Positions 1-20,939 of a stretch of 64,000 nt of DNA are shown piece after piece. This stretch comes from an uncultured delta proteobacterium. GTDB lineage: Bacteria > Desulfobacterota > RBG-13-43-22. The notes under the pieces are model-generated. The model had not been told where the DNA came from, ran no database searches, and was given only the letters and a program-made list of their open reading frames with translations. Within the stretch, counting starts at the first letter, position 1; every line of letters starts with the position of its first letter. Location: assembly GCA_963743305.1 (NCBI GenBank), contig CAVUPH010000026.1, positions 38,472 through 102,471 on the forward strand, read 5' to 3'. Made by a program: the position numbers and the translations under genes.

Positions 1-424
1 CGGCATCGTCCCAGAGGTCCAATTCCCGGATGTTGGTCCCCGAATCATCCCCTCGAGAGACAAACAGGCTGCCTTTCTCCGCGATCTCTTCCAAGGCTTC
101 GATGACGGTTTGGGCCTTTTTCACCTTGGCCGGATCCTTGGCCGGGCCAACAATGGCAAATTCGTTGTACATCACCTCCCGGCGATTTACCCCATACCCT
201 TCAGCAATGAATTTTTCTTCACGAAAGGGGTCATGGACAAAAAGCACATCGGCTTCTCCCTTTTTGGCCAACCGGATGGCCTTGCCCGTACCCACGGCAA
301 TAACCTCCACCTTGACCTGGTATTTCGAAAATTTCTCATAGGCCGGAATCAAGATGTCAAAAAGGCCTGAATTCTGGGTGCTGGTGGTTGAGGCAACGAT
401 CAGCTTGTTTTTTGCTTTAGCCAT
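1..424 (-). CDS. Tungstate ABC transporter substrate-binding protein-like (TupA-like); 3' end runs off the window
   Basis: My translation reads MAKAKNKLIVASTTSTQNSGLFDILIPAYEK...VIAVGTGKAIRLAKKGEADVLFVH...FVSRGDDSGT, with the TTS and SRGDxSGT motifs of TupA. AGGAG RBS at 431-435. Not in the ORF track because it is truncated. Confidence 0.8.
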   Translation of the reverse strand, partial: MAKAKNKLIVASTTSTQNSGLFDILIPAYEKFSKYQVKVEVIAVGTGKAIRLAKKGEADVLFVHDPFREEKFIAEGYGVNRREVMYNEFAIVGPAKDPAKVKKAQTVIEALEEIAEKGSLFVSRGDDSGTNIRELDLWDDA

Positions 425-510
425 AAGGGTCTCCTTTTTTGCAGGGTAGTTAAAATATTTATTCTATTAAATTAATACTTTAACCTGGAATGTCAATGGC
501 CTTCCCGTTG

Positions 511-1452
511 TTATTTCCCCCCCGGATCATCCCCGTGCTGTTTCTTGATAAAATTGTGGTGGGTGGCCGTACCTTCTTTTCGGGCCTGCCCGACGGTCAG
601 GAACTTACCCACCAGGAGCATATGCATTTCCGGGGGCAGGTTCTGATAATCGATCTCTTTCAAAAACAGGCCGACCGTACTCCGCAGGACTTTTTCTTTT
701 TCCCGGTCTCCGGCGTAAAGCACCACCGCCACCGGGGTGTTTTTGGAATAATGTTTTTTAAGCTGATCAAACAGCTTGGGATAGTCCAGCTTCATGGTAT
801 AAAAAACCATACTGGTTTTATGGGTCATCAGTTCCCTGTTTCTATCCCGCCGGCCCGGCCAGTCGGTCATGGTTAAAATAACCGAGCTGGTGTCCCAACC
901 ATAGGGCGGGCTCATCTTGACCGCGGCGCTGGAGGCCTGAAAGGCCCCGATCCCGGGGATGATTTCAGAGGGGAAATCCTTGGGCAGCATCTCCAGATAA
1001 AAGGTGGTTCCATACATCATGGGGTCCCCCCACTGGAGGGCCGCCACTTTTTTTCCCTGGGCCACCGCTTCTTTGATCTTGCCGATCATCGACTTTCGGG
1101 CTTCGGCGTTCCGGATGGCCTTGGCCCTGACTTCGGGGTCTTTCAAGGTCTGCGGATCAATTCCATAATACACCCGGGCGACATGTCCCAGGTACCAGAC
1201 CGGTTTGTCGCCGATCCACTGTTTCCAAGCCTCCAGATCCGACTGGTCTTCCAGGATGAAGATATCGGCCTGCTTAACCGTCTCGAGCCCCCGGAGGGTG
1301 ATCAGGTCCGGGCTGCTGCCCATGCCGACGATATAGAATTTTCCTTCGCCGGCCAGCAGAGAGCCGGGAAGAGCCAGCAACAATACCAGCAGGACGCCAC
1401 TCAGTAACTTTATTAGACGCTCTTCTTTAAACATATATCCTTTCCTTTCCAA
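511..1452 (-). CDS. Tetrapyrrole (corrin/porphyrin) methylase family protein, CobM/CbiF-like, with N-terminal signal peptide
   Basis: Motifs FYIVGMGSSPDLITLRG, AALQWGDPMMYG and IIPGIGAF. Leader LIKLLSGVLLVLLLALPGSLLA-G. The start may be 1434 (MFKEE). Confidence 0.8.
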   Translation of the reverse strand: MERKGYMFKEERLIKLLSGVLLVLLLALPGSLLAGEGKFYIVGMGSSPDLITLRGLETVKQADIFILEDQSDLEAWKQWIGDKPVWYLGHVARVYYGIDPQTLKDPEVRAKAIRNAEARKSMIGKIKEAVAQGKKVAALQWGDPMMYGTTFYLEMLPKDFPSEIIPGIGAFQASSAAVKMSPPYGWDTSSVILTMTDWPGRRDRNRELMTHKTSMVFYTMKLDYPKLFDQLKKHYSKNTPVAVVLYAGDREKEKVLRSTVGLFLKEIDYQNLPPEMHMLLVGKFLTVGQARKEGTATHHNFIKKQHGDDPGGK

Positions 1453-1453
1453 T

Positions 1454-2227
1454 TTAATTTAATCGGTACACCACCGGGATCGTGATCTGGGCTTCCACGG
1501 GGGGACGTGGAAAAGGGGCGCTTTCCATTAAAGACTCCAGAGCTTTCTGATCCAGGAGTTCATAACCGGAACCCCTGGCCACCCGGGGATCTTTTATCAA
1601 GCCATTGGTCGTGATGATAAACGAGAGGACGACTTTCCCCTCCCAGCCCAGGCGCCGCGCTATTGCCGGATAGTTGACATTTTTCAGAATCTTGTCCCGA
1701 ATGTAGGCGAATTGTTCAGCCAGATAACGGTTTTTGGCCTTCTCGGCGGCACCGCTTTCTAAGTTGGATCCTCCACCACTTCCGCCTTTTCCAATGACCG
1801 GTCCGCTCCCGGAAATCCCGGATATACCCGTTCCACCGGCCTGCCCGTCTGGTTTTCCCGACCCTCCCGGCACATTCGGGACACCCGGCTCTTCCACGGG
1901 TACGCTCAAATCCGAAGTGGAATGAATCCAGGTGGGGGAGGTTCCCGGGACTTTCGGTGCTGCCGGAGGGGGAGGGAGTTTGACCTCTTCCCGGGGAACC
2001 GGGGCGGGAACGGCCTGGGATAGTTTTTTTGATGCCGGCTGGAATGATTTTTTTAGCGGGGTCTCCCGGATTTCTTGAACCGGGGCCGGAGTTGGTTTTT
2101 CCAAGTCAAAATCGATGATCACCGGGTGATGTTTTTTTATTTCCAGCGTGCTGAGACCCAACACCCCGGCAATCACCACCGCGTGAATGATCAAAGAATA
2201 TTGGACCCCTCTGGCTTGCGGTTTCAC
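1454..2227 (-). CDS. tonB: Energy transducer TonB
   Basis: N-terminal TM with SLIIH, Pro/Gly-rich linker, C-terminal YPAIARRLGWEGKVVLSFII. Confidence 0.9.
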   Translation of the reverse strand: MKPQARGVQYSLIIHAVVIAGVLGLSTLEIKKHHPVIIDFDLEKPTPAPVQEIRETPLKKSFQPASKKLSQAVPAPVPREEVKLPPPPAAPKVPGTSPTWIHSTSDLSVPVEEPGVPNVPGGSGKPDGQAGGTGISGISGSGPVIGKGGSGGGSNLESGAAEKAKNRYLAEQFAYIRDKILKNVNYPAIARRLGWEGKVVLSFIITTNGLIKDPRVARGSGYELLDQKALESLMESAPFPRPPVEAQITIPVVYRLN

Positions 2228-2604
2228 GGCCGTTCTTCGGTCTGGAGACTGACCCGTTTAAACTGAAGTCCTTTGACCAGATCCAGGACATCGACAAACC
2301 CCTGTAGGGCGATCTGCCGATCCGCCCGGATCAGGATCGGGATATTCCTATTCTGCCCCTCCAGGCCCTGTCTCAACCCATCCAGGGCCACCGCTTTAGC
2401 GTTCAAGAACAGCCCCCCCTGACGGTCGATCGCAATGGTCTGGGTCCGCAGCATCTCCCCCTGGCTTTTGACCACTTTGGGCAGATCGATAGGAATCATC
2501 CCGGTGGCGATAAAGGATGAAGTGGTCAAAACGATCGCCAGCAGAACCAGCATGACGTCCACCAGCGGGATTACATTGATATAATCAAACTCTTTTTCTT
2601 CCAT
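2224..2604 (-). CDS. exbD: Biopolymer transporter ExbD
   Basis: INVIPLVDVMLVLL and IRAD motifs. Confidence 0.92.
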   Translation of the reverse strand: MEEKEFDYINVIPLVDVMLVLLAIVLTTSSFIATGMIPIDLPKVVKSQGEMLRTQTIAIDRQGGLFLNAKAVALDGLRQGLEGQNRNIPILIRADRQIALQGFVDVLDLVKGLQFKRVSLQTEERP

Positions 2605-3019
2605 TCAGAACGTCCCAGTCCAGGAGCAACACCTTGACCTTGCGCAACAGGAAATTATACAAGGTCACCGAGGGAATGGCCACCAGCAATCCCACGGCCG
2701 TGGCCTTCAGGGCCAGGGCCAGGCCCACCATGATCTTACCGGTATCCATGAACCCTTCCAACCCGATGGTATAAAAGGTCAGCATGATCCCTAAAACGGT
2801 CCCGAGCAGGCCGATATAGGGCGCGTTGCTTCCAATGGTGGCGATCAGGTAAAGTTTTCCGGTCAGTTCCTTTTCCAGACCGGGTTTGTCGGGGAAGTCT
2901 TCTAAGCGTATACGCCGATAAACCAGGTGGCGTTCCAGGGCTACGCTCAGGGCCACGATGCTCAGCAGAATCAGGAACCCGATGATCCCGTAATCGACCG
3001 CAATTTTCACCCATTCCAT
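2585..3019 (-). CDS. exbB: TonB-system energizer ExbB
   Basis: IATIGSNAPYIGLLGTVLGIM and ALKATAVGLLVAIPS motifs. Confidence 0.92.
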   Translation of the reverse strand: MEWVKIAVDYGIIGFLILLSIVALSVALERHLVYRRIRLEDFPDKPGLEKELTGKLYLIATIGSNAPYIGLLGTVLGIMLTFYTIGLEGFMDTGKIMVGLALALKATAVGLLVAIPSVTLYNFLLRKVKVLLLDWDVLNGRKRV

Positions 3020-3025
3020 AATTCG

Positions 3026-5097
3026 CTAGAACTTTCCGGTAACACCTGCCCAGAAAGCCCGTCCAGGACCGGGAAACCCGAATTCCGGCTCGTAGTTGAT
3101 GTCAAAAATATTGTTCACCGCCACGTACACCTCGAACCATTTCAGGATCGGCTGGGTGACCTTGAAGTTGGTCAGGAAATAGTCCCCGGTTTTCAGCGTG
3201 GGCACGGTCTTATTCTGGGGTGTGGGAAGCTGGGAATAGGCCTCGCCCACATACAATCCGATCAGGTCCAGCTTGGTTTTAACCTGAGGGATGACATATT
3301 GTACCCCGAGGTCCAACTTGTGCTGGGGGGAGAAGGTTACGTCGTCGGTGACCCGTCCGTCACTTTCATTCTTAGAATCGATATAGGCGTAATCACCCCG
3401 CAGGAGTCAGACCGTCCAACGGATATACGGCACCGCCCACTTCGATACCCATCCGCTTCACGTTCCCGTAGTTTTGATAGTTGCCGAGAATGCCAGGGGC
3501 ATCGCGGGAGATCAGGTCGGTGACGTCATGATAGAATAAGGCGAACTCCAATTGGCCCACCTTGCCCAGGGCCTGATCCACACCCACCGTATAGTTGATG
3601 CTTTTTTCCGAGGCCAGGTCGGTATTGCCGCCTTTGCTGGAGTAAAGCTGTTGCAGGGTCGGGAAGCGGGATTTACGGGCGATGCGAACCGAAGAGTTTG
3701 GTCCCGTCGGCCACCTGGTAATTCAACCCGATCATGGGATTGAATTCGCTGGTGTTGGGTTGGGGGTTGGAGATCTGGCGCACGAAGTTACCCGTTTTGG
3801 AGTCCGTGACGTTCTTCTGGGCCTGAGTCACGTCGAACCAGTCGTAGCTGACTCCGCCCACCAGAGATAGATTTTTTACCAGGGTGAATTCGTCTTCCAG
3901 ACCCCAGGATCCGGTGTAAGACTTGGACTCCGCAAAGGGCAGATAGGCATCGTCCCGCTCCTGGTGGTTGTCCTCCTTGTAATGCAAGGACATTCGCAGG
4001 TTGTTCCATTTCACCGGCTGGTAATCGACAAAATAGGAGCCGCCCAGTGATATAATCCTCATAGCGGCTGACGGCGATCTGTTTGGTCAGGGCCGAATCG
4101 GCATAAGAAACGTAATCGTCGTTATGATGGTGATAAAAGAGCTTGGCCTTCATATTCCACTGGTCGTTCAACCGGTGCCTCCCGTCCAGGTCGACCCCCC
4201 AATCCTCATAATTCTGGATCCGGACGTTGGCCGTGGAAAACGCCGGACGGTTGGTAAACACCGGTTGCTATCAGGTGGAGGCCGGCGACCCTTTGTCTCG
4301 GTTCAGGTAGTGGAAATTGGCGAAAAATTCGAATCCTTTATGGGGGTCGCTCCGATTTTGGCCCAGAAGTTTTTGCTGGTTATGTCGGAATTGTCCCGTT
4401 TTCCCCCGTCTTCAAAGACGACGGTGCTTTTCCCCGCCCGGGCTGCGGGTCAGAGTCCCTTTTCTGGGCTTATAATCGTCCGAGAGATTCCAACCGTCCG
4501 ACTTCAGGTAGCTGGCACTCAGCCACCAGTTCCAGATACCGGTCTTCATGCCGTGGGTGGCCGAGAGGCGGTAGGTGTTGTTTTCGCTGAATTCCATGGT
4601 GGCGCTGGTGAACGGTTTTTCCGAGGGTTGCCGGGTGATGATGTTGATCACCCCGGCCAGGGCATTGGCCCCGTACAGGACCGAGGCGCCGCCCTTGATG
4701 ATCTCGATGCGGGCTACGTTGTCGGTGGGAATCTGGTTTAGGTCCAGTTTCCCGACATTGGTTTCGTAGTAGGGGACCCCGTCCATCAGGATCAGCGCCT
4801 CGGATTGATCGAACCCTCGAATCGAGATATTGGGTTCGTTCTTTCGACCGGTGGTCACCGGATCCCCGGCGCATAGCTTAGGGCCTCGGCTACGGTTTTG
4901 CTGTTGGTCGCCGGGATGTCTTCGGCGGTGATCTCGGCGATCACCGTCGTCTCCCGGACCTTGTCCCCCGGCACCACGATCTCACCCAGGGTGTAGGTCT
5001 CGAATTCCTTGGGCATCTTTCCCTCGGCCCAGACCAGACCGGTCCCCCAAAAGAAGAACAGCGTTAACAGCAAACCCATCTTTTCTCTCTTCCTCAT
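3026..5097 (-). CDS. TonB-dependent outer-membrane receptor (multiple frameshifts)
   Basis: Signal peptide MRKREKMGLLL..., YTLGEIVV TonB-box region, plug motif RIEIIKGGASVLYGANALAGVINIIT, C-terminal NNIFD...GRAFWAGVTGKF. Spread over about 6 ORF fragments. Confidence 0.85.
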
Positions 5098-5107
5098 TTT
5101 CTCCTCC

Positions 5108-6430
5108 TCATTTTTGGTATTGGCTCTTTTCAATTTTCGCGACCAGAAAAAATAAAACGGCAACCCCGATAAGGCGATGACCAGCCCCAACAACGAGGTC
5201 TGGGGCTTCTCCCAGGAAATCTGCCAGGCAATCCAGCCGTAGGTCCCGACAAACAGAAGCGGCGTCAGGGGATAACCCCAGGTCCGGTAAGGTCGAAATA
5301 GGGCCGGCCTCCTGGCCCGGAGAGTCAAGTGCGCCAGACCCGTCGCCATCGAGGACACCAGCATGATGAGCACCACATAGCTCAAAAGCTGGTCGAAGCT
5401 TCCCCAAAGGACCATACCGGCCGCCAGCAGTCCCGTGGGTCAAAATCGATCCGTAGGGCGTCCGGTGCCGGGGATGAAGTTTTTTCAAGAACGACCAAAA
5501 TAGACCGTCCTCGGCCATGGCGTAAAAAATCCGTGAGCAGGCCAGGAGGGTGGCATTGATCCCGGAGGCGATGGCCAGTACGATCACCAGGGAGATCGAG
5601 TCCGGCGTAAGGCCTGCTGAACAGGGTTTCCGCCGCCAGTTGACCTACGTTGACCACCCCCTGAAGTTGCGGGATCGGGACGGCATACAGGTAGGTAATG
5701 TTCATCAAGGCGTACAATACGGTTACGATCAGGGTCCCCGAGAGCAGCGATCCGGGGAACGTTTTTCTCCGGGTCCTTGACTTCACTGCCCACATAGGCC
5801 GAGGCGAACCAACCGCTGTAGGTAAAAATGACGGCGATCATCGGCGAGGCGAAGAGTTTGGTCCAGGATAGGGTCCCGCCCGGGTCCCCGGAAAAATGTT
5901 GCCAACTCCCCTTCCCCAATAGTAGCCCACCCAAGACGAACCGACCGATGAGCAACAGGGCGCCCAGGGTAAGATATCCTGGGTGGTGCTGCCCCAGCGT
6001 ATCCCGCGGTAATTGATCCAGGTAAACAAGGCGATCACCGCCAGGGCCGGTACCTTTTCCGAACCCGAGCCAATCCCCGGCAGAAACGGTTTCAGGTAAC
6101 TGACCAGCGCCAAGGTCAAGGCGGCCATTGAACCCGGAATAATGATCCAAAAGTTGACCCAGCCAAGCAAAAAACCGGCCCAGGACCCGTAGGCCTCCTT
6201 GAGGAACTGATAGTCGCCGCCGGCTCGGGGAAACAAACCGGCCAGTTCGGCATAGGTCAGGGCCCCGCAAAGCGTGAGCAACCCCCCGATGATCGGGATG
6301 CCGACAACCAGAAGGGCTGGGGCAGCTCACCGGCCAGAAATCCGCTGGTGGTGAAGATGCCGGCGCCCACCACGTTGCCCACCACCAGCAATATGGCATC
6401 CGACAGTCTAATGTTTCGATTGAGCGGCAA
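5108..6430 (-). CDS. APC-family amino acid permease (frameshifted)
   Basis: VVGNVVGAGIFTTSG, LTYAELAGLFPRAGGDY, FTYSGW and RPYRTWGYP motifs in successive frames. Ends approximate. Confidence 0.8.
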
Positions 6431-6445
6431 GGATCGGTTTCCCGG

Positions 6446-8231
6446 TTAATGGTGGCGATCCAAAGTCTTGGCCTCCAGGCAGGCCCCGATGTGGGAAATC
6501 ATGCCCAGCCACTTTTCCTTTTCTTCCCAGGCGATGGACAGGGCCTTGTCCAGCGTGGTCTTCACCAGGCGCTCGCTGTCGGCAAAGCCCACCCGATAGG
6601 CAAAATAAACCGGGTGGCCGGCGGGTAATAGCCGCCCAACAGATCCAGCAGGCCTTTTAAATCCTTCAACCCCATGAACAGGGCCAGGGTGTCCCCCTTC
6701 TCGACCGCCGCCTTAAGCAACGCCGGGTTGTCCTTAAGGCCCAGGAGGTGGACAGGAACAACCGCCCTCCCGGCAGGCCAGCTCCTTCCCGATGAGCGCG
6801 TTGGCGGCATTGAAGGCGCTGATCCCCGAGATGAACTCCTTTTCCTGATCTCCCAACCGGGCGGCGATCTGGCGCAGACTCCCATAGATAAAGGGATCCC
6901 CGTATTCCAGCAGGGCCACGTTCTTCCCCTGTTGCAGTTCAGCCTGAATCAGTTTTACCGCTTCTCGATCTTTTTTTCCAGCAGGGTCTCTTTTTCCTTC
7001 GGGGACAGCTTGCCCAGCTCCTTTCCATAAATGGGCTCCGGCATCAAATACTTGAAAGGATCAAACAGGACCGGGCGCCCTCCGATGTAAGCGGACAGAC
7101 GTTTTTTCAGATCGTCGCTGCAGACGAAGACATCAGCCCGGCCCAGGGCCGACAAGGCCTGCTGGGTCAACAGGTCCGGATCGGCGCAGCCCATACTGAT
7201 CAAGATAGGCCTTGGGTTTCCGGAGCAGGTTGATGACCTCGATCCGGGAAACGGCCTTCACCCAGCGATCGGCCGACAGGTCGTCGGGGATCACCAGTTT
7301 AAACTTGCCGTCCGCCTGAATGGGCTTTCCTTCCTTGCGGTCGGCGATGATGATTCGCCGGCCCAGGGGATTGAGCAACAGCTCCCCCATGGAGATCAGG
7401 GACCGGTACCCGTCCGGTGCCGAAATGACCACGGCCAAATTCAGGTCCTTGGTTACCCCGGCCCGGGTGAGCACCTCCATCAAGGGGACCCCTTCAAATC
7501 GGAGCAGACCGTGATAGCCTCTCCCCTCGCCCGCGACCTTGCCCGTCACCTCCACCCGGGGATAGGCCGATAAATCGGTCACGGTCAGCGGGGGTTTGCG
7601 GCTCCTGAACCACCGTCAGATCGGGGGCAAAAAGCTCCTTCATCCGTTTCACCGGCATTTCGAAATGCAGGTCGACCACCTCGATACTGGTCACGTTTTC
7701 CAGAGACCGCTCGGTATAGAAATCGTTGGCCACCACCAGCCTGGGTAAGCCCACCTTTCTTTTCAAGGGATCGTGCCAGACCCGGTAAACCTCCGCTGGG
7801 TGACAGGCAGCGCAGTCTCTGAGAGGCATGACCGGCTCCGTCTGGAAGGCCACGACGATGTCCGCCGGGTTGCGATAAAACACCTCCCCCCAGACAAGGC
7901 CGCCTGTTTCTCCCTCCCGGTTACGGACCACGATGGCCATATCCAGCGGTTTACTAAAGGCCGATTCCCCTTTTTGGACCACCGCGGTCTCCAGCAGCTT
8001 CCTTCAACGACACCCCCCGGTAGTTGAAAACCCCGTGAAAAGTCTTGTCCCGGGTCAGTTCATTCAGGCGCACCGGAATCGATTGGAAGCGAGCCAGATC
8101 GGAGAGGCTGAATTGAAGCGGTTGTTTGACGGCGCCAATGATATGCAGGCTTTCCAAGGTACCGGCCTCCACCCCGGGAAGCGATCAACAGGAGACTCAG
8201 ACCAATAAACGACCCATTTCATCTTCTTCAT
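6446..8231 (-). CDS. Exported fusion protein: two molybdopterin-oxidoreductase-like (sulfite oxidase-type fold) repeats plus a C-terminal tetrapyrrole methylase domain (frameshifted)
   Basis: RBS plus MKKMKWVV leader. Repeat 1 has YRGVSLK...WGEVFY. Repeat 2 has FEGVPLMEVL...SAPDGYRSLISMGEL...KLVIPDDLSADRWVKAVSRIEV. Methylase domain has ISMGCADPDLLT, LEYGDPFIYG and SGISAFNAA. Reconstructed across frames. Confidence 0.6.
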
Positions 8232-8248
8232 AAAACGATACTCCTTTT

Positions 8249-9010
8249 TTAAACGGATTTTCGCTGCGGAAAGTACCAGACCAGGGCCAGGATCAGGACA
8301 ATGAACCCCCAGAAAATGAAGGTGCCGGCCGGGATCCTGTTTGATGACCACCTTCAACTCCTGACCCGGTTGGGCCTTTTTGGCCATATCCAGATGAAAG
8401 GTATATCCCTTCCAGGAGACCGGTTGCATGATCTGGAGCTCCCGGGATTTCAGGCTGCCGGCGGCGTCAAACAGCAGAACCGCCCGGCATTGTTTGTAGC
8501 ATCCCCCGGATAGGTTCCGGACCCGGATAGCGCTGACAATCTTGACTGATCAACCGGACCATCCCGACGCCCGGAAGCTGGATACCGGTTTTCGGTTTGT
8601 TCGGAACGACCCCGTTGAAGCCCACGACCAGGCTGATCCAGTGCCCGGAAAGGATGACCAGGAAACATAAATGGATCAAGGAAGGGCTGAGTCGGAACGG
8701 AAAACGTTCGGACACCGATCTGTCTCCTTAAAGGCCATAAATGGATCAGTCGTTTCAAAGCGCAGACCACGGTATTGACGCCTAGAAAGAACAGCAGGAG
8801 AATAAGACTTCCCAGCCACCAGAGTTGGTTGATCTGGGAACGACCCACCTGTTGAACCCACTCTTGAATCAACATCTGGTTCAGCGGATTGAAGAAAGTA
8901 AAATTAAATTTCAAATAATAGGAACCGATCCCCAGGTTGGCAGAAATCAACAAGAGCAACCAGAAGTTGACTTTGACCTCGCCGCAGAAATCCCAAATCT
9001 TTTGAAACAT
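8249..9010 (-). CDS. ResB/CcsB-like membrane protein (frameshifted)
   Basis: N-terminal TMs, GVNTVVC, SLIHLCFLVILSGH and C-terminal KQDPG, as in ResB/Ccs1. 3' end approximate. Confidence 0.6.
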
Positions 9011-9014
9011 TCCG

Positions 9015-9772
9015 CTATCCCCCGATCCGTGGCGGCAGGTTGGTTTCGGTCAAGAACCCTAAGTAGCCGTAAAGCAGGATCATTGCCAGCCCGACCAGCG
9101 AGAAGCGGGCTTCGGTCCGCAGATTCCAGACCGGAAGATAGCGAAGATGCAGCAAAGCCGCATAAAAACACCAGAGTGAAGCGGATTGCAGATGACGGGC
9201 GCTCCAGTGCAAAGGGGTGGCCCAGCCTAGAAAGGCCCAGTAGGCGCCCACCACCTGGGCGCCGCTGAAAAAGATAAACCCCCAGACCAGGAAGGAATGG
9301 AAAAGGCGGGCCGTTTCGTCCTGCCGCAAGTAGATCAGGCCCAACATGCTCCCCGCGATAAAACAGGCGTGGCTGATAACCTCCAGCATAAAGAACAGCC
9401 AAGAAAACAAGGTCTGGGTTTTCGGATTGGGCGGAACCACCCCCAGGGGAAAAAGAAAAGCCAATACCGAGAAGACCACCAGGGGAATCAGTAGCCCGCC
9501 GGCGAGAGAGGCTTTCCCGGGAATGAATCTGAACCCCAAAGCCAGCGCCGCCAGGCACCAGGGCAGGAAAAAACTTTCTTCAAAAAGGGCATAGGGGGAC
9601 CAAATCCCGACAAGCCCTCCCCGGTTGACCAGAAAGACGGTGTGTCCCAGGAAACCGAGCACCAGGCAAGACGAATGGGAATGTATCTCCGCCGGAATAG
9701 CCAGGCGACCATTGAAGCGGCATAAAAACCCGTTACGAGCGGAAACCCGTTATTTATTGTTATCGAGATCAT
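9015..9772 (-). CDS. CcsA/ResC-like cytochrome c assembly family protein (5' frameshift near 9665)
   Basis: Multiple TMs, a Trp-rich loop GAYWAFLGWATPLHWSARH resembling the WWD domain, and YAALLHLR. Confidence 0.7.
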
Positions 9773-9812
9773 CAATTAAAAATTTCCCGGAAACGGGATG
9801 AGCGAGAAGAAC

Positions 9813-9854
9813 TATGTCTTTTTCGACATGTATGTCAAAACAAGCATATATGTC
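9813..9854. promoter_or_regulatory. Candidate operator/promoter upstream of the ccsA-like operon
   Basis: TATGTC at 9813, 9831 and 9849 (18-bp period). Overlapping palindromes ATGTC-N6-GACAT and GACAT-N2-ATGTC. Two TTGACA hexamers on the minus strand. Confidence 0.55.
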
Positions 9855-9890
9855 AAGAATTTTTTCCGGGGGATCGCAAAAAAATCAATT

Positions 9891-12095
9891 TTACTGGAAT
9901 CGAGTCTGAAGCGCCTTATAGTTCCAGCCGAAGGAGACCAGCAGCTCCTCCCCGGCCTTGAGGAGCAGTTCGAGGTATTTCTTTCGATCGTAGGGTTCCT
10001 GGCCGGTCAGGAAGGGGGCGGGGACCACCCGCTCCTCGGGCAGGGCCGCCCCGCTGTCCCGCAGGAGAAAGGACACCCGCTGGCCGGGATGGAGGGTCAA
10101 CCCCTCGGCCTCCAGTTGCTGGAGGGTCAGGGCCGACTGGGTAGCCACCCGGTACTGGTCCAGGGGACGGCTGGATCGGCGGGTGATGATCAGTTCCGTG
10201 GGGTGGACCCGTCCGTCTTTCAGCAGTCCGGCGTATTCGCCCAGACGGGTCAGCATTTCCGGCACCTGCTTTTCCAATGTCTGCCGGTCCCCGGCCCGGG
10301 CCATCCAACCCAGGAGTTCCTCCTGCACCTCCCGGACGAAGCGGGGGACGTCCTTGCGGCAGCGGGCGATCCCCCGGGTCTTGAGGGTCCCGTTTTGAAA
10401 GGCCCCGAAGTAGCGGTTGGCCACCGGACGGCGCGGCTGGACCTTGGAAGGCAGGAAGACGATCCAGTGATAAATTCCCTCCAGACTTATGGGAACCTGG
10501 GTCTTTCGCTCGATTTCCTCAAGCAAAATGTTAATGTCCCCTTCCGTCAGCCGCTCCCCCTGGAGCCAGAGGGAATCGGTCAGCCCGTGGAGGACCTGGT
10601 AGCCCCGGATCTCGGCGCACTCCTTGGCGATCAGCAGCTTGTCCCGGCCGAAGGCGGTGATGGCCTCGTGGGCCTCGATCCGACCGAAGCGGGCGTTCTT
10701 GTAGCCCAGGTAGCCGAAGCAGGTGACCAGCACCCACTTCAACCCTTTCTGCAGGGCCTGATAAACGGCCTTCCGCGGATGCCCCTCCTTGATCCGGGCC
10801 TTGAGCTCGGTCCGCAGCTTCAGGATCGGCTCCAAGGTTTCAGGCACCAGGCCTCGACGGCGCCGACAGATATTGTAGCCCGCCTCCGGGACCACCGGTT
10901 CTGGGCAGCAGGAACATAGCATGGTTTCGGGCGAGATATTGTGCCGGACCATGATGGTGGGATACATGGAGGCATAGTCGATCTCGGCCACCCGCTCTCG
11001 GAGTCCGATCGGCGGCTGGAAGACCAGCCCTCCCTTGTCCGCAACCAGAAGGTCCCAGGCGGTCTTGAAGTCCTCGGGCCGCCCCTTTTTCCAGGGGATC
11101 AGGATTCCTTTTTGCACCGCCCGGTCGAGCTGCATGGAGGTGATGGCCGTGCCCGGCGAGGTCCGGGCCAGGGTCTGAACCGGGATCTTGGTCAGTCGCG
11201 CCAGAAAGATGGTTCCCTCCAAGCCGCACTCCCCCTGGGTGAAGAAAAAGGAATTGTTCCGGTCGATGTGGAAGCGCCCGAAGAGGGGGAAGGCCGCGCC
11301 CTGGTAGGCAATCTGCCCGTAAGTAAAGTAGGAGCGCCCTTCCCCCACCCGCCGGCGCGGCGGAGGGTGGGGGTCCCGGTCCAGGACCAAAGGGATTTTC
11401 TCCTTCTCGGACCAGTGCCAGAGACAGGGAAAGATGCGTCCGTCCCCGTGTTGGGAGAGGAGGCAGTCGGGATCCAGGCGGGCTACGAGTTGGTTGAATT
11501 CGGTCAGCAGTTCGGCGGGAGTCAGGCCGTCCAGTTCGAAGACCCGGTCCTCATAAGTCACCTGCAGGCTGTTGCCCCGCTCCAAAGGGATCTGGGGGTG
11601 TTTAGCCAGGGTGAGCTCAACAACTTTTAGAGAAGGAATCGGAGCATCCGGGTCCCAGGGGGAATGGAGGACCTTGAGACCCCGGAGCTGATTGCGCTCC
11701 CATTCGAACTCGCAGAAGGCCAGGGGGAAGAGGCCCCGCTCGTAGGCGTAGTATTGGGGAACGGCCAGGTCGCAGTTGTAAAAGGTGATCCCGCCGGCCC
11801 AGTCGGCCAGGCGCCGCTGGATCTCCGGGAGCTTCTGCAGGGCCCGGACCTCCAGCTCGAAAACCGGCATTGCTTTGCCGCTCCAGAACTCAGTCCGCCT
11901 GGTCCAGCCCGTGCGCCGCAGATACCGGCCAAGCCCTCTTTCCAGGGCGCTCAGGGCGGACCGGGTCCCCTGGGCGTAAAAGCGGTAGTCGAAATAATCG
12001 GTCAGGCAGAGCATCTCCCCGCCCGTTAATCGAAACCAGAGGACCATCACGTCCTCGCGCACGTACAAGTCGAAAAGCCAGCCTTTGGCGATCAT
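9891..12095 (-). CDS. Family B DNA polymerase, PolB2 type (degenerate 3'-5' exonuclease)
   Basis: Motif A DYASMYP..HNISPET, motif B KWVLVTCFGY, motif C HGLTDS (first Asp of YGDTDS lost), and NRYFG...RGI. Confidence 0.88.
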   Translation of the reverse strand: MIAKGWLFDLYVREDVMVLWFRLTGGEMLCLTDYFDYRFYAQGTRSALSALERGLGRYLRRTGWTRRTEFWSGKAMPVFELEVRALQKLPEIQRRLADWAGGITFYNCDLAVPQYYAYERGLFPLAFCEFEWERNQLRGLKVLHSPWDPDAPIPSLKVVELTLAKHPQIPLERGNSLQVTYEDRVFELDGLTPAELLTEFNQLVARLDPDCLLSQHGDGRIFPCLWHWSEKEKIPLVLDRDPHPPPRRRVGEGRSYFTYGQIAYQGAAFPLFGRFHIDRNNSFFFTQGECGLEGTIFLARLTKIPVQTLARTSPGTAITSMQLDRAVQKGILIPWKKGRPEDFKTAWDLLVADKGGLVFQPPIGLRERVAEIDYASMYPTIMVRHNISPETMLCSCCPEPVVPEAGYNICRRRRGLVPETLEPILKLRTELKARIKEGHPRKAVYQALQKGLKWVLVTCFGYLGYKNARFGRIEAHEAITAFGRDKLLIAKECAEIRGYQVLHGLTDSLWLQGERLTEGDINILLEEIERKTQVPISLEGIYHWIVFLPSKVQPRRPVANRYFGAFQNGTLKTRGIARCRKDVPRFVREVQEELLGWMARAGDRQTLEKQVPEMLTRLGEYAGLLKDGRVHPTELIITRRSSRPLDQYRVATQSALTLQQLEAEGLTLHPGQRVSFLLRDSGAALPEERVVPAPFLTGQEPYDRKKYLELLLKAGEELLVSFGWNYKALQTRFQ

Positions 12096-12127
12096 GGGAT
12101 TGAGGATAGAGTACTTGTCGGGACTTA

Positions 12128-12275
12128 GAACCCGTCAAGAAATAAGCTGTACAATACCGCTAATATCTCCGTTCATGCTGAGCCTGTCGAAGCATGGCCG
12201 TATCGTTCACCCTTCGACCAGCTCAGGGCGAACGGTTGTAGGGCCGCTTTGTCAAGGTTATTTGTTTACAGATCC
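12128..12275. mobile_element. MITE/REP element, copy 1 (~148 bp, flanked by TTA)
   Basis: Imperfect terminal IRs GAACCCGTCAAGAAATAA and TTATTTGTTTACAGATCC. TTA on both sides. Internal hairpin CTGAGCCTGTCGAAG...CTTCGACCAGCTCAG. Confidence 0.7.
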
Positions 12276-12358
12276 TTAGTACTTTGTTGTCAATTGGAAG
12301 ATAATCTTCCAATTGACAGGGAAAGATTTAGGTAACCTAACCGATCTGGAGTCGGTTA

Positions 12359-12505
12359 GAACCCGTCAAGAAATAAGCTGTACAATACCGCTAATATCTC
12401 CGTTCATGCTGAGCCTGTCGAAGCATTGCCGTATCGTTCACCCTTCGACAAGCTCAGGGCGAACGATTGTAGGGCCGTTTGTCAAGGTTATTTGTTTACA
12501 GATCC
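12359..12505. mobile_element. MITE/REP element, copy 2 (direct repeat of 12128-12275)
   Basis: Near-identical sequence, again flanked by TTA. Confidence 0.7.
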
Positions 12506-12552
12506 TTATCGGCAGAAAGCCTGAAGCCAACTATTTCCCTCCTAAAGCCTGG

Positions 12553-13178
12553 TTAATTCTTCTTTACCGGTTGCCGGATGATCGTCCTTAGCTTTTCCGG
12601 GGCGGTCTTGCGGGGATCGCTCAAATAAATCTCGTGGTGTTTGCCGGCCAACCGGTAGCCGTGGTCCCTGACGAAAGCATGGATTCTTTGAATAGTCGCA
12701 TGTTCTTCCGCAAAAGGCCCGACATACAATATCTGGGCGGACAGCCCCTCGGCCAGGCTTTCCCAGCGAACCCGGGCCAGATGGGGGAGAGGCTTTTTCT
12801 TTTTCACCTGCTCCAGCGCCGGACCGAATAGCTCCGGGCTGACCATGCTCCGGCTGCCGAATCATCAGCGTCCACTGCCAGCGGTCTTTATCCAATCTCT
12901 CCGGATTGAAGGCCTCCATATCCTCGGCCCACCAGAGCCCTTCCAGGGGCAGCACGGCATAGTCGATCCCCTGCCCTTTCTTGACCATAAACTTGAGCGT
13001 ATAGGACAGGCTGTACAGAGCCTCCACCGCCGCCTGGAAATCCGGTGACGGTGTTGGGATCCCCGGCCCCGTCGGCCATGAGGAAGTTCATGCCCGGCAC
13101 CTCCACCAGCGCCACTTCTTTGGCGGACGGGGCGTAGAGGTGCTTTTGGTCCTTTTTTAGGTCTATCTTTAAACCCAT
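12553..13178 (-). CDS. GyrI-like small-molecule-binding domain protein (frameshifted)
   Basis: KIDLKK..LYAPS, GAGDPN, LYSLSYTLKF, PLEGLWW and GKHHEIYLSDPRKTAPEKLRTIIRQP across 3 frames. Confidence 0.8.
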
Positions 13179-13191
13179 CTAATGCCCCCCA

Positions 13192-14100
13192 TTATTGGAG
13201 CCGTTTTCTGGCCGGTTTGACCGAATACAGGGCCTGTTCTTCCTTGATCAGGCAAGCTTTTTCAGTCTCGATCTTTTCAAAAATAAACTGGGTCTTCAAA
13301 AATAAATTCATATCCTCCGCTTTCAAGTACCCGGCCGCCATTCGACAATATTCCGGATCAATTTCCACACCGATACTGTGGCGGGCATTTCGAAGAGCTG
13401 CCACCATAGTGGTGCCGGAACCGCAAAAAGGATCCAAAACGGTATCCCCCGTGAAAGAAAACATCCGCACCAGTCGGGAGGCCAGTTCAAACGGAAAGGG
13501 GGCGGGGTGATTACGAGTTGAGGCGCCGGGAACATTCCAGATTTGTTGAAACCAGCGGTCGAATTCATCCTTATTGATCCGACTGGCCTCGCGCTGGGCA
13601 TTGGTCGGTTTCCGGCATCCTCCCGGTTTCCGCTGCATGAGAATGAACTCCATGTCGTTTTTAATGATGGCGTTCGGCTCGTAGGGTTTACCGAGAAATT
13701 TGGACCCGTTTGTCACCTCGTAGGAGGCATTGGCGATTTTATGCCAGACAATCGGGTTCAAGTTATCAAAACCAATCCGTCGGCAACTGACGCAGATATC
13801 CGCGTGGAGCGGAAAAACGAGGTGCCGGCCGAAATTCCGCCGGGCTACACACACGTCGCCGACCACACAGACCAGTCGGCCTCCGGGGACCAGGACCCTA
13901 TAAATATGTCGCCAGACCTTCTCCAATTCTCCCAAAAACGCTTCATAATCCTCGATGTGTCCGAGTTGATCTGAATTTTCGTTGTAGCGCTTGAGGTTCC
14001 AATAAGGTGGGGAGGTGACCACCAGATGCACCGACTCGTCTTCAATAAAAGATAAATCGCGCGCATCGCCGTTGATTAACCGGTGGATCGTCTTTCCCAT
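13192..14100 (-). CDS. Site-specific DNA methyltransferase, N4C/N6A beta class
   Basis: VVTSPPY followed by HPAPFP and LDPFCGSGTT. Confidence 0.9.
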   Translation of the reverse strand: MGKTIHRLINGDARDLSFIEDESVHLVVTSPPYWNLKRYNENSDQLGHIEDYEAFLGELEKVWRHIYRVLVPGGRLVCVVGDVCVARRNFGRHLVFPLHADICVSCRRIGFDNLNPIVWHKIANASYEVTNGSKFLGKPYEPNAIIKNDMEFILMQRKPGGCRKPTNAQREASRINKDEFDRWFQQIWNVPGASTRNHPAPFPFELASRLVRMFSFTGDTVLDPFCGSGTTMVAALRNARHSIGVEIDPEYCRMAAGYLKAEDMNLFLKTQFIFEKIETEKACLIKEEQALYSVKPARKRLQ

Positions 14101-14228
14101 AGTTTTAAACTAGACTCGCCTGGCTGGCTTGACCAAAGCCTGTTCTTCTTTGCCCAGACAAGCCCGTATGGACGTCGCCAGTCGAGTCGTAATCTTGTCG
14201 TAAGTTGTGTCACAAGATTGTCGCAAGT

Positions 14229-14601
14229 TCAGTCCTTATCCTTCGCCCGGTAAACGAGCTTGTTGGTCGCTCCCTCCGAAACCAACAACTCCATTTTCAA
14301 GGTATTCGGAGACCAATTCGAACGCCTTCCGATAGTTCAACAGCTCCCGCACGTCGTCCGGATGGGCCTCGGGAACCGAGTCCCCCGCAAGCAATCGTTC
14401 GGCTTGGTCCAGGGTCAGGCACGTTCCCTCGATGTGCGTGGTATGGTGCGCTTCCAGGATCAAAGCCCGACGGCCCATTTCACGCACCCAGGCTTCGGAC
14501 AATGCCGCGGCCTCCAGGAATCCCCGAGCCCGCTCGATACGGGTCAACCCGGCGGTGATCCGGTTGGAGATCGTAAAAATAGGTTTGAAGTTCTTCTTCA
14601 T
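14229..14601 (-). pseudogene. Fic family protein remnant, catalytic core deleted
   Basis: Fic N-terminus ([11 protein letters not shown]...[10 protein letters not shown]...ELLNYRKAF) joined directly to a C-terminal fragment ([14 protein letters not shown], other frame). No HPFxxGNGR motif. Confidence 0.7.
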
Positions 14602-14783
14602 TTCACGCCTCCGAGGATTCCTAATATCGCCGAACCGACCCTTCCCTTTCTATCTTCTCCGGCATTTTTGTAGATTTCGATAAGCAATCCCTGGCCGCCA
14701 CCCAAACCGCTGATGTGCCGGCATGATCTGCCGGTAGTCCTGCTGGATCTGCTTCTCCCGCAGCGCCAGATCGGAGATGCCCA

Positions 14784-15011
14784 TCAAGCGGAAACGGCCT
14801 GACAAATGACCGGCCGGTACTTGGGCGGTGGAATGGGTTTCCCTTCAGCACGGGCCGCCTGCAGCCACAGCGCCTTGGCCTTCTGCACCTCCCGCAAGGC
14901 ATCGTCCGGCGTTTCTCCGAAGGCGGAACAGGCATCGAGATCGGGAATATCCGCGATATATCCGCCATCATCTTCCGAATAGAAAATATGGTATGTGGGG
15001 TTAATCATCAT
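14784..15011 (-). CDS. HicB family antitoxin (no hicA partner adjacent)
   Basis: IFYSEDDGGYIADIPDLDACSAFGETPDDALREV...GKPIPPP. Confidence 0.85.
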   Translation of the reverse strand: MMINPTYHIFYSEDDGGYIADIPDLDACSAFGETPDDALREVQKAKALWLQAARAEGKPIPPPKYRPVICQAVSA

Positions 15012-15724
15012 ATGGCCCGAGGAACCGCTCCCCGTTGAAATGGATCAAATGGGTCGGAGACTCGGCAATCCAGACCTCCGTTTCCCATGAAATATCATCA
15101 AGATATCTTACCATGGCGTGTCGATCAAGAAATGCGGTGACATAAACCAGCCCGACATTAGATCCGGAAAATAATTTCTTTAGTTCTTGTCGCCGTTTGG
15201 GGTTAACGGGTCCATGGCTGGTCACGGCTTCGATCAATACGAGCCATTTTCTTCGTATGTGGTATACGACGACATCCGGCATCTTACCGTGTTCCTCGAT
15301 CCGGATTCCGAAATTTCTGAACGAATCCGAATCGAAATAGGCCCATTTCCTTTGGGTGTCACCAACATAAATAATCTGTCCGCCGGGAGTAAAAAGCGGA
15401 CAGAACTCATCAATTATCTTCTTAACCAGTATATTATGCCCACCCGCTGAAAGCCGGATCTCTTTCCCGTGTGCCAGTACGATTGGGATACGATGCATTT
15501 CCCGCTCACGGGCATGCGGCGAAAAACTCCATCATTGGGGTAATTCCCATCAACGGGCTACCCGCCTTGTCCCATGGATCCCCAGGTTTTAGATCCAACA
15601 ACGACAACAATGTCAATGCCGAACGTTCGTTTTGCTGCTGCCTGGGAAGTCCGAGAGCTTTTAAAATTTCAAGGGCTTCCCGCAGTTTCTGCTCAGCTTT
15701 GTCGACTTTTCCCCTTCTACCCAT
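15001..15724 (-). pseudogene. BsuBI/PstI-family type II restriction endonuclease, internally deleted and split
   Basis: N-terminal ALGLPRQQQNERSALTLL...GITPMMEF and C-terminal LSAGGHN, HGKMPDVV, IEAVTSHGP, SWETEVW, HLIHFNGERFLGPY. The middle segment is absent. Confidence 0.8.
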
Positions 15725-17239: not shown

Positions 17240-17351
17240 ATTTTATAGGACCTTTAAACCATCAAGCGGTAAAACTTCTCCCCTGGTCGTCAGGATCATT
17301 TTCTTCATATCCCCCGAATTTCCGAAGCCATTCGACGATCGCCAGCATCTT

Positions 17352-19398: not shown

Positions 19399-19832
19399 TG
19401 CAGGTTCTCCAGATCAGCCAGGTCCTGCAGTCTCCCAGCCGCCCTCTTGGTTTTCTTCAGATTTTCCAGATCGATGAAATATACGGGGACGTCGTCGATT
19501 GTCACTACCACCCGGGCCGCGTAGGAACGGCCAAAATCAACGCCCGGCGGCGAAGTGATCAGGTCGATGCGGTTGGGCGGGTAGCCCAGTTGGATAATCT
19601 GTTCCGGTTCCAGGAAATCCCCCGCCGTCAGGTCCAGGGACCCGAAACCGAACTGGACCAGTGCCCGCATCAGCTTTGCCGCGTTATCCGGGTCCCGCTC
19701 GACCCACACGTCCAGGTCCTTGGTGTAGCGGGGATAGCCGTGCAGCGCCACCGCGTAGGCACCGATCACCAGGTAACGGACGCCGTTATCGTTTAACGAC
19801 CGAATAAACTCTTTGAAATCCGGGTTCAGCAT
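19395..19832 (-). CDS. Nucleotidyltransferase-fold protein (putative toxin-antitoxin component)
   Basis: YLVIGAYAVALHGYPRYTKDLDVWV and C-terminal KRAAGRLQDLADL. Confidence 0.8.
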   Translation of the reverse strand: MLNPDFKEFIRSLNDNGVRYLVIGAYAVALHGYPRYTKDLDVWVERDPDNAAKLMRALVQFGFGSLDLTAGDFLEPEQIIQLGYPPNRIDLITSPPGVDFGRSYAARVVVTIDDVPVYFIDLENLKKTKRAAGRLQDLADLENLQ

Positions 19833-19983
19833 CGTATTTCCACCTGTGGAATTCCTGCCGGATCTGCTCCAAGGCGGCCAGCCGGCGGGCATAGGGCTGG
19901 GTCTGCCAGTAATCAAAATCGGTCTTTTGTTCGCCGATTTTCACTTTGGTACAGACCTTGGCAATGGAGGGAGACGGTTCCAT
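19786..19983 (-). CDS. Small protein partnered with the nucleotidyltransferase
   Basis: 65 aa, DFDYWQTQP..RRLAALEQIR...FQRVYSVVKR; overlaps the start of the downstream gene. Confidence 0.6.
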   Translation of the reverse strand: MEPSPSIAKVCTKVKIGEQKTDFDYWQTQPYARRLAALEQIRQEFHRWKYDAEPGFQRVYSVVKR

Positions 19984-20146
19984 ATTTAATTTCCTGATAC
20001 TTCTTTTCTTTGTTTATAACTATCACATTTTACAAAAATAATCCAATAGACTCCCAAGGCAACCATTCCCTAAAAGCGGGGGATATGCACTCTTGATTTT
20101 ATCAAAATTATGTGCTAATTTTGATAAAAAAAGCGAGGGAATAAAT

Positions 20147-20782: not shown

Positions 20783-20804
20783 ACACTCCTCAAAGTCGAA
20801 ATTG

Positions 20805-20905: not shown

Positions 20906-20939
20906 AAATTTTCGTCCGCGGATGTCTGCGGCTAAAAAA

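Follow-up and report, generated by a model that had tools for sequence, protein, structure and literature searches.

Near the left end of the window, the 64,000-nucleotide stretch of an uncultured delta proteobacterium that was analyzed here (contig CAVUPH010000026.1, positions 38,472 to 102,471), lies a cluster of nine genes that encode a CcsA/CcsB-like pair, two exported methylase-like proteins, a permease, and a TonB-dependent uptake set. Open reading frames (ORFs), Pfam matches, and tblastn place all nine on the minus strand between positions 511 and 9775, in the order from the ccsA-like gene to MT2. An earlier reading made without database searches (the sequence-only reading) had described nine tightly packed, codirectional genes, and they are present in the order that it gave. 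The spacing is operon-like, with overlaps or gaps of 1 to 20 nucleotides in memB/ccsA and in TonB-dependent receptor (TBDR)/exbB/exbD/tonB/MT2. The features are listed from the upstream end.

9811..9838, minus strand: sigma-70-like promoter match, TTGACA-16-CATAGT, 10/12, located 5' of the first gene; weak
9015..9775, minus strand: CcsA/ResC-like heme-handling membrane protein, divergent (PF01578, E 3.8e-10); N terminus frameshifted here
8252..9010, minus strand: miniature CcsB/ResB-like membrane protein (tblastn to the 257-amino-acid protein of relative G005); three single-base indels
~6449..8235, minus strand: exported fusion of two Oxidored_molyb domains and a TP_methylase domain (PF00174 and PF00590 on pieces); about 12 frame-breaking indels
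5125..6430, minus strand: permease of the amino acid-polyamine-organocation (APC) superfamily, L-type amino acid transporter (LAT; SLC7/BasC) exchanger type (PF13520 and PF00324 on pieces); five single-base indels
3026..~5076, minus strand: TonB-dependent receptor (Plug and barrel Pfam matches on pieces); nine single-base indels
2585..3019, minus strand: exbB, intact (PF01618, E 1.5e-27)
2224..2604, minus strand: exbD, intact (PF02472, E 2.1e-22)
1454..2227, minus strand: tonB, intact (PF03544, E 1e-17)
511..1452, minus strand: MT2, stand-alone exported class III methyltransferase-like protein, intact, 313 amino acids, no Cys (PF00590, E 2.3e-34)
2..424, minus strand: start of a TupA-like gene that runs off the left edge of the window (PF12849, E 2.2e-29)

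The promoter match at 9838-9811 shares the best score within positions 1 to 12500. The number of sigma-70-like sites did not exceed that in shuffled sequences (7 versus 5.0 ± 2.3), so the evidence for a promoter is weak. Directly upstream of the cluster is an intact bacterial family-B DNA polymerase gene, polB (9891-12095, minus strand, 734 amino acids; 742 amino acids in the same-genus genome G002).

Conservation and earlier annotation of the cluster

The genome of the window (G000) is 90% complete, and it was compared with G002 and with G005, a relative in which the operon is unbroken. In G005 the genes encode the CcsA-like protein, the CcsB-like protein, the fusion, the permease, the receptor, ExbB, ExbD, TonB, the methylase, two TupA-like proteins, and a Porin_O_P porin. 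In the syntenic G002 copy only the fusion gene changes frame, once, and the rest is intact. When one genome per species was scanned, 74 loci with the fusion gene were found in the Thermodesulfobacteriota (Desulfatiglandales, Smithella, Syntrophorhabdus, Desulfobacteraceae, Desulfarculus, and Geobacter), Nitrospirota, Spirochaetota, and one Acidobacteriota genome. The sequence-only reading had staked its proposal on conservation of the neighborhood across genomes, and G005, G002, and dozens of further species genomes share the arrangement. The gene cluster is real, not a chance arrangement, and is kept in many anaerobic bacteria.

Neighborhood profiles were built from the G005 proteins and iterated on the loci, and genes within 8 kb of the fusion were counted. 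Fused and stand-alone methylases were separated by length (at least 430 amino acids for a fusion), since their profiles cross-matched. Among the 31 loci that extend at least 8 kb to each side of the fusion, the receptor occurred at 25, the permease at 19, the ccsA-like and ccsB-like genes at 16 each, tonB at 14, exbB and exbD at 13 each, a TupA-like gene at 9, and the short methylase at 5. The permease was the gene immediately downstream of the fusion at 29/58 loci, and a receptor or ccsB-like gene lay immediately upstream at 37/57. At some loci the APC permease is swapped for an energy-coupling factor (ECF) module, a major facilitator superfamily (MFS) protein, or a FecCD-type importer, a replacement that fits an inward step for the ligand. 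The Spirochaetota locus L048 (7280-8341 and 11994-14852) has a stand-alone two-domain protein resembling the sulfite oxidase (SUOX) family before its CcsA/CcsB-like pair and an ECF-type transporter after the fusion. At the Desulfatiglandales locus L041 (11883-16566), the fusion is followed by a 337-amino-acid protein, an iron-sulfur (FeS) protein, an HgdD-like protein with its activator ATPase, a DsbD_2/CcdA-like protein, and then the permease.

No characterization of the fusion family was found in the full-text literature searched, which did not extend to subscription journals; the sole mention was the 2012 annotation of Pelobacter carbinolicus (PMC3543383). In the part of that article that deals with these genes, Pcar_0191 and Pcar_0192 are annotated as "molybdopterin-binding tetrapyrrole methyltransferases," one with a heme-binding site, and Pcar_0193 to Pcar_0195 as ResB-like, ResC/HemX-like, and a ligand-gated TonB-dependent channel (Aklujkar et al. 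2012). Its authors guessed at the biosynthesis of novel porphyrins that bind other metals and noted a link to metal-binding proteins. By this published annotation, Pcar_0191 to Pcar_0195 appear to form the same module as the window cluster. That part of the account offers annotation without experiment, a permease or TupABC link, or fold analysis. The module has been noticed and annotated before but is uncharacterized, and the sequence-only claim that no characterized pathway matches the cluster agrees with what these sources contain.

Frameshifts in the window copy

In the window, every gene between about 3.4 and 9.9 kb is split into pieces that lie in differing frames, as judged from ORFs and tblastn. 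Alignment of the window to G002 by blastn over positions 3022-12100 gave 92.2% identity with 41 gap openings. Single-base gaps number 33 between 3407 and 9872, where the window has 20 extra and 13 missing bases; the polB gene (9891-12095) has no gap opening in the same alignment. Between 3407 and 9676, about 31 indels break the frames of the ccsA-like, ccsB-like, fusion, permease, and receptor genes, and they are not found in G002 bar the one frame change in the fusion. Extra bases relative to G002 occur in the ccsA-like gene at 9669 and 9676. With the G005 proteins as the reference, G002 reads in a single frame for each gene except the fusion, while the window shows two to five frame changes per gene, with fusion gene frames that shift -3/-1/-2 (tblastn). 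Since the window changes frame where G002 mostly does not, nearly all of the breaks belong to the window. The frameshifts that the sequence-only reading had pointed out are thus real features of the sequence as given.

Indels of lengths not divisible by three are concentrated in a few stretches of the window: 36 at 4-10 kb, 14 at 18-22 kb, 8 at 48-50 kb, and 9 at 0-2 kb, with near zero elsewhere. Of those at 0-2 kb, 7/9 fall in a block that covers the N-terminal part of MT2 and the MT2/tonB junction. The indels are not restricted to long homopolymers. The ratio of nonsynonymous to synonymous differences (dN/dS) between the window and G002 was determined in the G002 reading frame, with gapped codons left out. 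For the broken genes, dN/dS was 0.13 (ccsA-like), 0.24 (ccsB-like), 0.22 and 0.12 (fusion), 0.17 (permease), and 0.13 (receptor), and for the intact neighbors it was 0.10 (polB), 0.13 (exbB), 0.09 (exbD), 0.22 (tonB), and 0.11 (MT2).

These breaks could mean that the cluster is a decayed, functionless pseudogene array in this genome, as would be suggested by some 31 frame-breaking indels in five genes whose G002 orthologs lack them (bar the fusion frame change) and by indels that are not confined to long homopolymers. We consider decay unlikely. The dN/dS values of the broken genes resemble those of intact polB, exbB, MT2, and tonB, and 31 real indels would be expected to bring hundreds of neutral substitutions that are not there. 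Insertions also outnumber deletions (20 versus 13), opposite to the deletion bias that we take to be usual, and the indels end exactly at the intact flanking genes, while other local indel patches occur at 18-22 kb and 48-50 kb. Because of the dN/dS values and the absence of the expected substitutions, we regard it as highly probable that the frameshifts are recent or, more likely, local consensus errors. The window copy is probably intact in reality but misassembled.

A second patch of such indels relative to G002 covers 17300-21500 (14 of them at 18-22 kb), with overlapping ORFs that have no Pfam family; G002 is fragmentary there too. The G002 assembly also has a few breaks of its own. Its second TupA-like gene is split over two frames (L014, 1555-1960), and the frame change in its fusion gene is near residue 303.

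The exported methylase-like proteins and the CcsBA-like pair

The fusion protein, of about 590 amino acids, is composed of a signal peptide, a first SUOX/PruR-like domain that usually contains CxxCH, a second SUOX/PruR-like domain, and a class III methyltransferase domain. The intact G005 ortholog (592 amino acids) matches PF00174 (E 1.3e-10) and PF00590 (134.3 bits; cut-off, 27.8), and the window copy contains the motif DCAACH within the ORF at 7494-7982. At least 651 homologs were found when 8000 candidates from a collection of 5.8 billion proteins were scored. Both PF00174 and PF00590 are present in 118 of the 120 homologs listed, and the database names of the homologs are generic only (SAM-dependent methyltransferase, precorrin-4 methylase, and YedY-like; SAM, S-adenosylmethionine).

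In an alignment of 17 fusion sequences, all N termini are basic and then hydrophobic, and CxxCH lies in an insertion within domain 1 in 14 of them; among 119 full-length members, 103 have CxxCH within the first 220 residues. Residues 25-335 in this alignment contain no invariant or nearly invariant Cys, and therefore no conserved Mo-ligand Cys; the only Cys residues are the CxxCH pair. The methylase part keeps the motifs GxGCxD, EYGDP, and PGxSAxN together with three invariant Cys residues. Motifs of the types GxGxxD, GDP, and PGxSA have a role in SAM binding. An invariant D271-G272-Y273 is present in domain 2, with none in domain 1; by alignment, its Tyr is a plausible counterpart of a pterin-stacking Tyr.

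The AlphaFold model of the fusion has a predicted local distance difference test (pLDDT) score of 75.6, with low pLDDT and a short helix at residues 1-24. Residues 334-585 match CbiF (2cbf; Z 19.2, 225 aligned). The N-terminal domains match the molybdenum cofactor (Moco) domains of the SUOX family, namely, SoxCD (2xts; Z 16.1), SorA (2blf; Z 16.0), and sulfite oxidase (1sox; Z 12.6), and an ESM Atlas search with residues 25-335 returned the Oxidored_molyb label again (scores, 0.90 to 0.91). PruR matches about as well, with 7kp2 aligning to residues 201-333 (Z 15.2; root mean square deviation [rmsd], 2.1; 121/138 aligned) and 7rkb to residues 22-184 (Z 14.9). PruR is described, in the relevant part of its report, as a periplasmic pterin binder of about 135 residues with an exported Moco-less SUOX fold that is without the Mo-ligand Cys (PMC11194511). 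The two domains of the fusion share with the protein described there both export and this fold. Unlike it, they are fused to a methylase, one of them carries a CxxCH insertion, they lack a dcpA-type partner (no dcpA-like gene is among the recurrent neighbors of the fusion loci), and their pterin binding is putative. The "Moco-like" domains of the sequence-only reading have SUOX folds, contain no invariant Cys, and match pterin-binding PruR as well as they match SUOX enzymes. Since the Mo-ligand Cys is not conserved, the fusion is not a molybdoenzyme.

The second methylase-like protein, MT2, matches PF00590 at 119.6 bits (cut-off, 27.8), and its N terminus combines basic and hydrophobic stretches with LLA-GE. 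Orthologs with 65 to 86% identity (E at most 5e-130) were found in 6 of the 40 relatives searched; the G005 copy has 308 amino acids. The methylase domains of both proteins have CbiF, CbiL, and CysG as their best matches, and they resemble CbiF/CobM, CbiL, and CobA in fold (Z 19.2 to 2cbf), in PF00590 score (119 to 134 bits), and in the GxGxxD, GDP, and PGxSA-type motifs. They differ from these enzymes in being exported, in the three invariant Cys residues of the fusion's domain, and in their scores. Against the CbiF-type model TIGR01465 (cut-off, 259.65), the fusion and MT2 of G005 reached only 78.1 and 91.1 bits, and other models likewise stayed below their cut-offs (163 upward). The fusion is no equivalog of any cobalamin or sirohem methylase. 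Export of both proteins, which the sequence-only reading had proposed, is what their N termini predict: both appear to be exported rather than cytoplasmic, given signal-peptide-like N termini and, for the fusion, a CxxCH motif that implies export. On the basis of sequence and model, the fusion is predicted to be an exported heme c protein in which two SUOX/PruR-like pockets that lack Moco are joined to a class III methyltransferase domain.

The presence of a CcsBA-like pair, also claimed earlier, rests on Pfam for the CcsA-like protein and on fold for the CcsB-like protein. The CcsA-like protein passes PF01578 (window ORF, 40.2 bits; G005 ortholog, 57.3 bits; cut-off, 29.9) and falls short of the CcsA equivalog TIGR03144 (46.8 versus 187.6). 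It is 67% identical to the 250-amino-acid G005 ortholog (tblastn), and a sequence search against solved structures returned only noise (E 0.22). Canonical CcsA has a WWD motif with flanking periplasmic His residues. All 12 aligned members of the CcsA-like family keep the motif G..W...GW.....W and a His downstream of it, and 11 of them also have a His upstream, while the Asp of WWD is lost. The CcsB-like protein is 44% identical to the G005 257-amino-acid protein (tblastn). None of eight family members reaches the ResB PF05140 cut-off of 24.6 bits; five of the eight have subthreshold matches to the N-terminal part of PF05140 (E 0.046 to 0.6). For the G005 model (pLDDT 88.7), Foldseek placed Helicobacter hepaticus CcsBA first (7s9y, E 6.1e-7; 7s9z, E 4.5e-6), followed by CcmF and then, after a gap, an unrelated match (E 0.026). 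VIA-align, which is independent of Foldseek, gave Z 10.1 and rmsd 3.2 to 7s9z, with 212/257 residues aligned to chain residues 1-334, the CcsB half.

Side-by-side genes for a CcsA-family and a CcsB-fold protein, next to a gene for a CxxCH protein, recall the System II cytochrome c machinery (CcsBA/ResBC), and a housekeeping pair is found elsewhere in the genome. System II includes dedicated isoenzymes, such as NrfI and CcsA1 of Wolinella. Unlike System II proteins, the window-type CcsB-like protein has only about 257 amino acids and no Pfam ResB match at threshold, the WWD motif of the CcsA-like protein is altered to W-x3-GW-x5-W with the Asp replaced, and the pair persists at loci without CxxCH. 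A canonical ResB (269 bits) and CcsA (190 bits) lie side by side on another contig (C13) of the same genome; the window pair is therefore an extra, specialized CcsBA-like copy. The sequence-only reading had the pair translocating the ligand. Its heme-handling character stands, but the pair would most simply be a heme supplier, exporting heme and attaching it to the CxxCH of the fusion rather than translocating an imported ligand. Of the fusion genes with at least 4.5 kb of flanking sequence, 17 had both CxxCH and the pair, 15 had CxxCH only, 2 had the pair only, and 2 had neither. A role as a dedicated heme lyase only was rejected as a full account, because Smithella-type loci have the pair without CxxCH. 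The pair may also export heme for noncovalent loading or handle another tetrapyrrole.

Uptake genes, a possible tungsten/molybdenum link, and candidate functions

The TonB-dependent set is complete, with a receptor of the plug and 22-strand barrel type (Pfam on pieces) and intact ExbB, ExbD, and TonB. The G005 receptor (684 amino acids) has both the plug (PF07715) and the barrel (PF00593), and the G005 ExbB passes TIGR02805 (165.3 versus 135.35). The receptor stayed below all NCBIfam substrate cut-offs (TIGR01779 [BtuB], 139.3 versus 599.7; TIGR01785 [hemin], 154.6 versus 316.85; TIGR01783, 172.3 versus 223.5). Its closest solved structure is BtuB, in the plug region only (E 7.5e-21), and the hemin-receptor subfamily aligns with it over the full length. 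A receptor family with a Sec motif (selenoprotein) was considered and dropped (118.7 versus 700 in NCBIfam), and the pertinent parts of PMC12013277 and PMC13188914 are irrelevant to the cluster. The G005 permease (437 amino acids) matches PF13520 at 193.1 bits, and its closest solved relatives are BasC (6f2g, E 5.5e-55) and then xCT, y+LAT, and LAT2 (E 1e-45 to 1e-54). These relatives are known as obligate exchangers of the LAT family. From its sequence relationships, a permease of this type may have a role with SAM/S-adenosylhomocysteine (SAH) or methionine, a role that the type fits without showing it.

The arrangement shares with TonB-dependent cobalamin, heme, and siderophore loci a receptor, ExbB/ExbD/TonB, and the logic of an inner membrane importer, and TupA/TupB-like genes adjoin it. 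It differs from them in having no periplasmic binding protein of the usual class and, instead, a heme-methylase fusion and a LAT-type exchanger. The receptor and the Tup proteins also differ from named TonB receptors and TupABC in falling under all equivalog cut-offs. As predicted from sequence and models, the cluster would be a variant of TonB-dependent uptake with an unusual exported heme-methylase core.

Several neighbors are linked to tungsten or molybdenum (W/Mo). To the left of the window the operon runs on along the same strand with a TupA-like gene, a fragmentary stretch, a Porin_O_P porin gene, a second TupA-like gene, a TupB-like permease gene, and a gene for an ATP-binding cassette (ABC) ATPase. 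The TupA-like protein at the window edge begins with MAKAKNKLIVASTTST and has no signal peptide; the rest of it is in L095 (14117-14896), and the G005 ortholog (260 amino acids) is alike. Judging by this N terminus, it would stay in the cytoplasm although its family is one of periplasmic binding proteins. Apart from the two TupA-like genes, the genome of the window has no TupA-family match. The downstream porin, of the anion type, weakly resembles ExtI of the selenite/tellurite operon (E 5.6e-11, 41.9 bits versus a cut-off of 150). Across 66 loci, a TupA-like gene was found at 14, a regulator that joins a helix-turn-helix (HTH) domain to a PBP_like domain at 13, a WtpB/ModB-type permease at 7, and an FdhA-like molybdopterin oxidoreductase at 7; at least one of these four was present at 27/66 loci and at 14/31 loci with full flanks. 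The sensor domain of the regulator resembles the C-terminal domain of a MoeA-type "molybdopterin biosynthesis protein," and we take its architecture to be that of the tungstate-responsive TunR type. ABC ATPases near the loci formed a single-linkage cluster that mixes transporter types, which was counted as neither W/Mo nor corrinoid specific. The sequence-only reading had proposed a tetrapyrrole or metallo-cofactor as the ligand. The genomic context (TupA-like, TunR-like, WtpB/ModB, and FdhA genes and the adjoining porin with TupABC-like genes) favors its W/Mo option over corrinoid, sirohem, or F430.

Tentatively, and at somewhat less than an even chance, we read the cluster as an envelope-spanning acquisition and processing system tied to W/Mo supply, in which a complexed W/Mo species or a pterin-type cofactor enters by a TonB-dependent route and is processed in the periplasm. 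The receptor, powered by its own ExbBD-TonB, would import such a species or cofactor that is unable to pass as the free oxyanion via porin and TupABC. The PruR-like domains would hold the imported ligand in the periplasm, and electrons would come by way of heme, which the dedicated CcsBA-like pair would export and, in most lineages, attach. The methylase domains would free the metal or cofactor by modifying the ligand, and TupABC and/or the permease would carry the products inward. The exchanger may also supply an amino-acid-type cosubstrate such as SAM, which is the most speculative step.

A number of observations weigh against this proposal. No result identifies the ligand, and the methylase fold, the CcsBA-like pair, and the best matches of the receptor (BtuB plug and hemin subfamily) point equally to a tetrapyrrole. 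To our knowledge, SAM is not available in the periplasm. The W/Mo-linked genes are missing from 39/66 loci, and the Tup proteins score below the NCBIfam cut-offs (TupA-like, 230 and 244.7 bits versus 400 for NF041772; TupB-like, 169.4 versus 320); for both reasons the W/Mo link is a strong lead and not proof. No Moco, cobalamin, or other relevant riboswitch reached the Rfam gathering thresholds in the window and 10 loci, where the lone match was an unrelated nhaA-I in L059, far from the cluster. Nine Smithella-type loci keep the pair though all nine of their fusion genes lack CxxCH, and no CxxC[HK] was present in any recognized cluster protein of the five such loci inspected in full; conversely, 15 loci have CxxCH and no CcsBA-like pair nearby. 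The loci come from related lineages, so that their counts are not independent events, and the cluster genes are frame-broken as written in this genome.

The closest competitor is the salvage or remodeling of a tetrapyrrole, in which the receptor would import a corrinoid, heme, or other porphyrinoid, the CbiF-like proteins would bind or methylate it in the periplasm, and the CcsBA-like pair would move a tetrapyrrole across the inner membrane. The matches of the methylase domains to CbiF, CbiL, and CysG argue for it, as do the BtuB plug and the full-length alignment of the hemin subfamily for the receptor, the heme handling of the CcsA/CcsB family, and the retention of the pair without CxxCH at Smithella-type loci. 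CobD/CbiB, ECF-CbiQ, or FecCD-type importers also lie near some loci, and the ABC-ATPase cluster, present at 14/66 loci, has a representative whose best matches are corrinoid/heme ABC ATPases, although single linkage lumps other ABC ATPases with it. However, no cobalamin riboswitch was found in the 11 sources scanned (the window and 10 loci), the methylase scores are all far below equivalog cut-offs, and the two PruR/SUOX-like domains and the W/Mo-linked neighbors, including the TupABC-like continuation, would go unexplained. We consider this salvage somewhat unlikely. Still less can be said for the idea that a metalloid oxyanion (Se, Te, As, or Sb), whether toxic or used in respiration, is reductively methylated in the periplasm, with heme as the reductant and the methylase domains as methyl donors, which seems improbable. 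A heme and a methyltransferase on a single exported protein would suit it, as would the weak ExtI likeness of the downstream porin and the adjacent oxyanion-type binding proteins. A TonB-dependent importer with a dedicated energizer, however, suits nutrient scavenging and not detoxification, the ExtI match is far under its cut-off, we know of no metalloid methylase of this fold, and no arsenic or selenium resistance genes are among the recurrent neighbors.

Within the W/Mo supply proposal, a bolder version, which we hold to be very doubtful, has SAM-dependent methylation take place in the periplasm. The two exported class III methyltransferases would be fed by the LAT-type exchanger, which would send SAM out and bring SAH back, and together with c-heme and the two pterin-type pockets they would process W/Mo species scavenged by the dedicated TonB receptor. 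Candidates for the scavenged species are a thiometallate, a metallophore complex, and the pterin cofactor itself.

Elsewhere in the window, a restriction-modification island at 12100-17300 has an N6_N4 DNA methylase (13192-14100), a BsuBI/PstI-type endonuclease domain (15001-15498), and an Eco57I-like methylase (15717-16928); this stretch does not align with the syntenic region of G002. At 25429-28186 (plus strand), one ORF of 682 amino acids covers the small subunit of a [NiFeSe]-hydrogenase and runs on through profile positions 1 to 275 of the large subunit, whose remainder is read from a second ORF that overlaps the first (27458-28186). A frameshift, a fusion, or a recoding site could each account for this arrangement, and G002 has no alignment there. 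In an unusual architecture, a single ORF of 902 amino acids at 38320-41028 (minus strand) encodes both an ABC1 atypical kinase domain and a complete LysR-type regulator (HTH_1 and LysR_substrate). A folate/one-carbon set at 49285-62667 comprises methylenetetrahydrofolate reductase with a small partner (49285-50876), a 1476-amino-acid multiflavin/FeS protein (51431-55861), formate-tetrahydrofolate ligase (55963-57726), a FolE2-type GTP cyclohydrolase (60453-61262), and an AICARFT/IMPCHase-like protein (61384-62667).

Much of the formate, aldehyde, and aromatic metabolism of syntrophs and sulfate reducers runs on W/Mo enzymes, for which these organisms obtain the metals in settings where sulfide turns them into poorly available forms. 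If the W/Mo link holds, the cluster is a concrete candidate for a second W/Mo or cofactor uptake route, and it may provide the first example of a tetrapyrrole-methylase fold that transfers methyl groups outside the cytoplasm. SAM-dependent methylation in the periplasm, if true, would offer anaerobes of sulfidic habitats a new means of getting W/Mo or of salvaging cofactor. The cluster also bears on heme delivery to noncytochrome periplasmic proteins, through a miniature CcsBA variant that is kept even where no CxxCH client is present.

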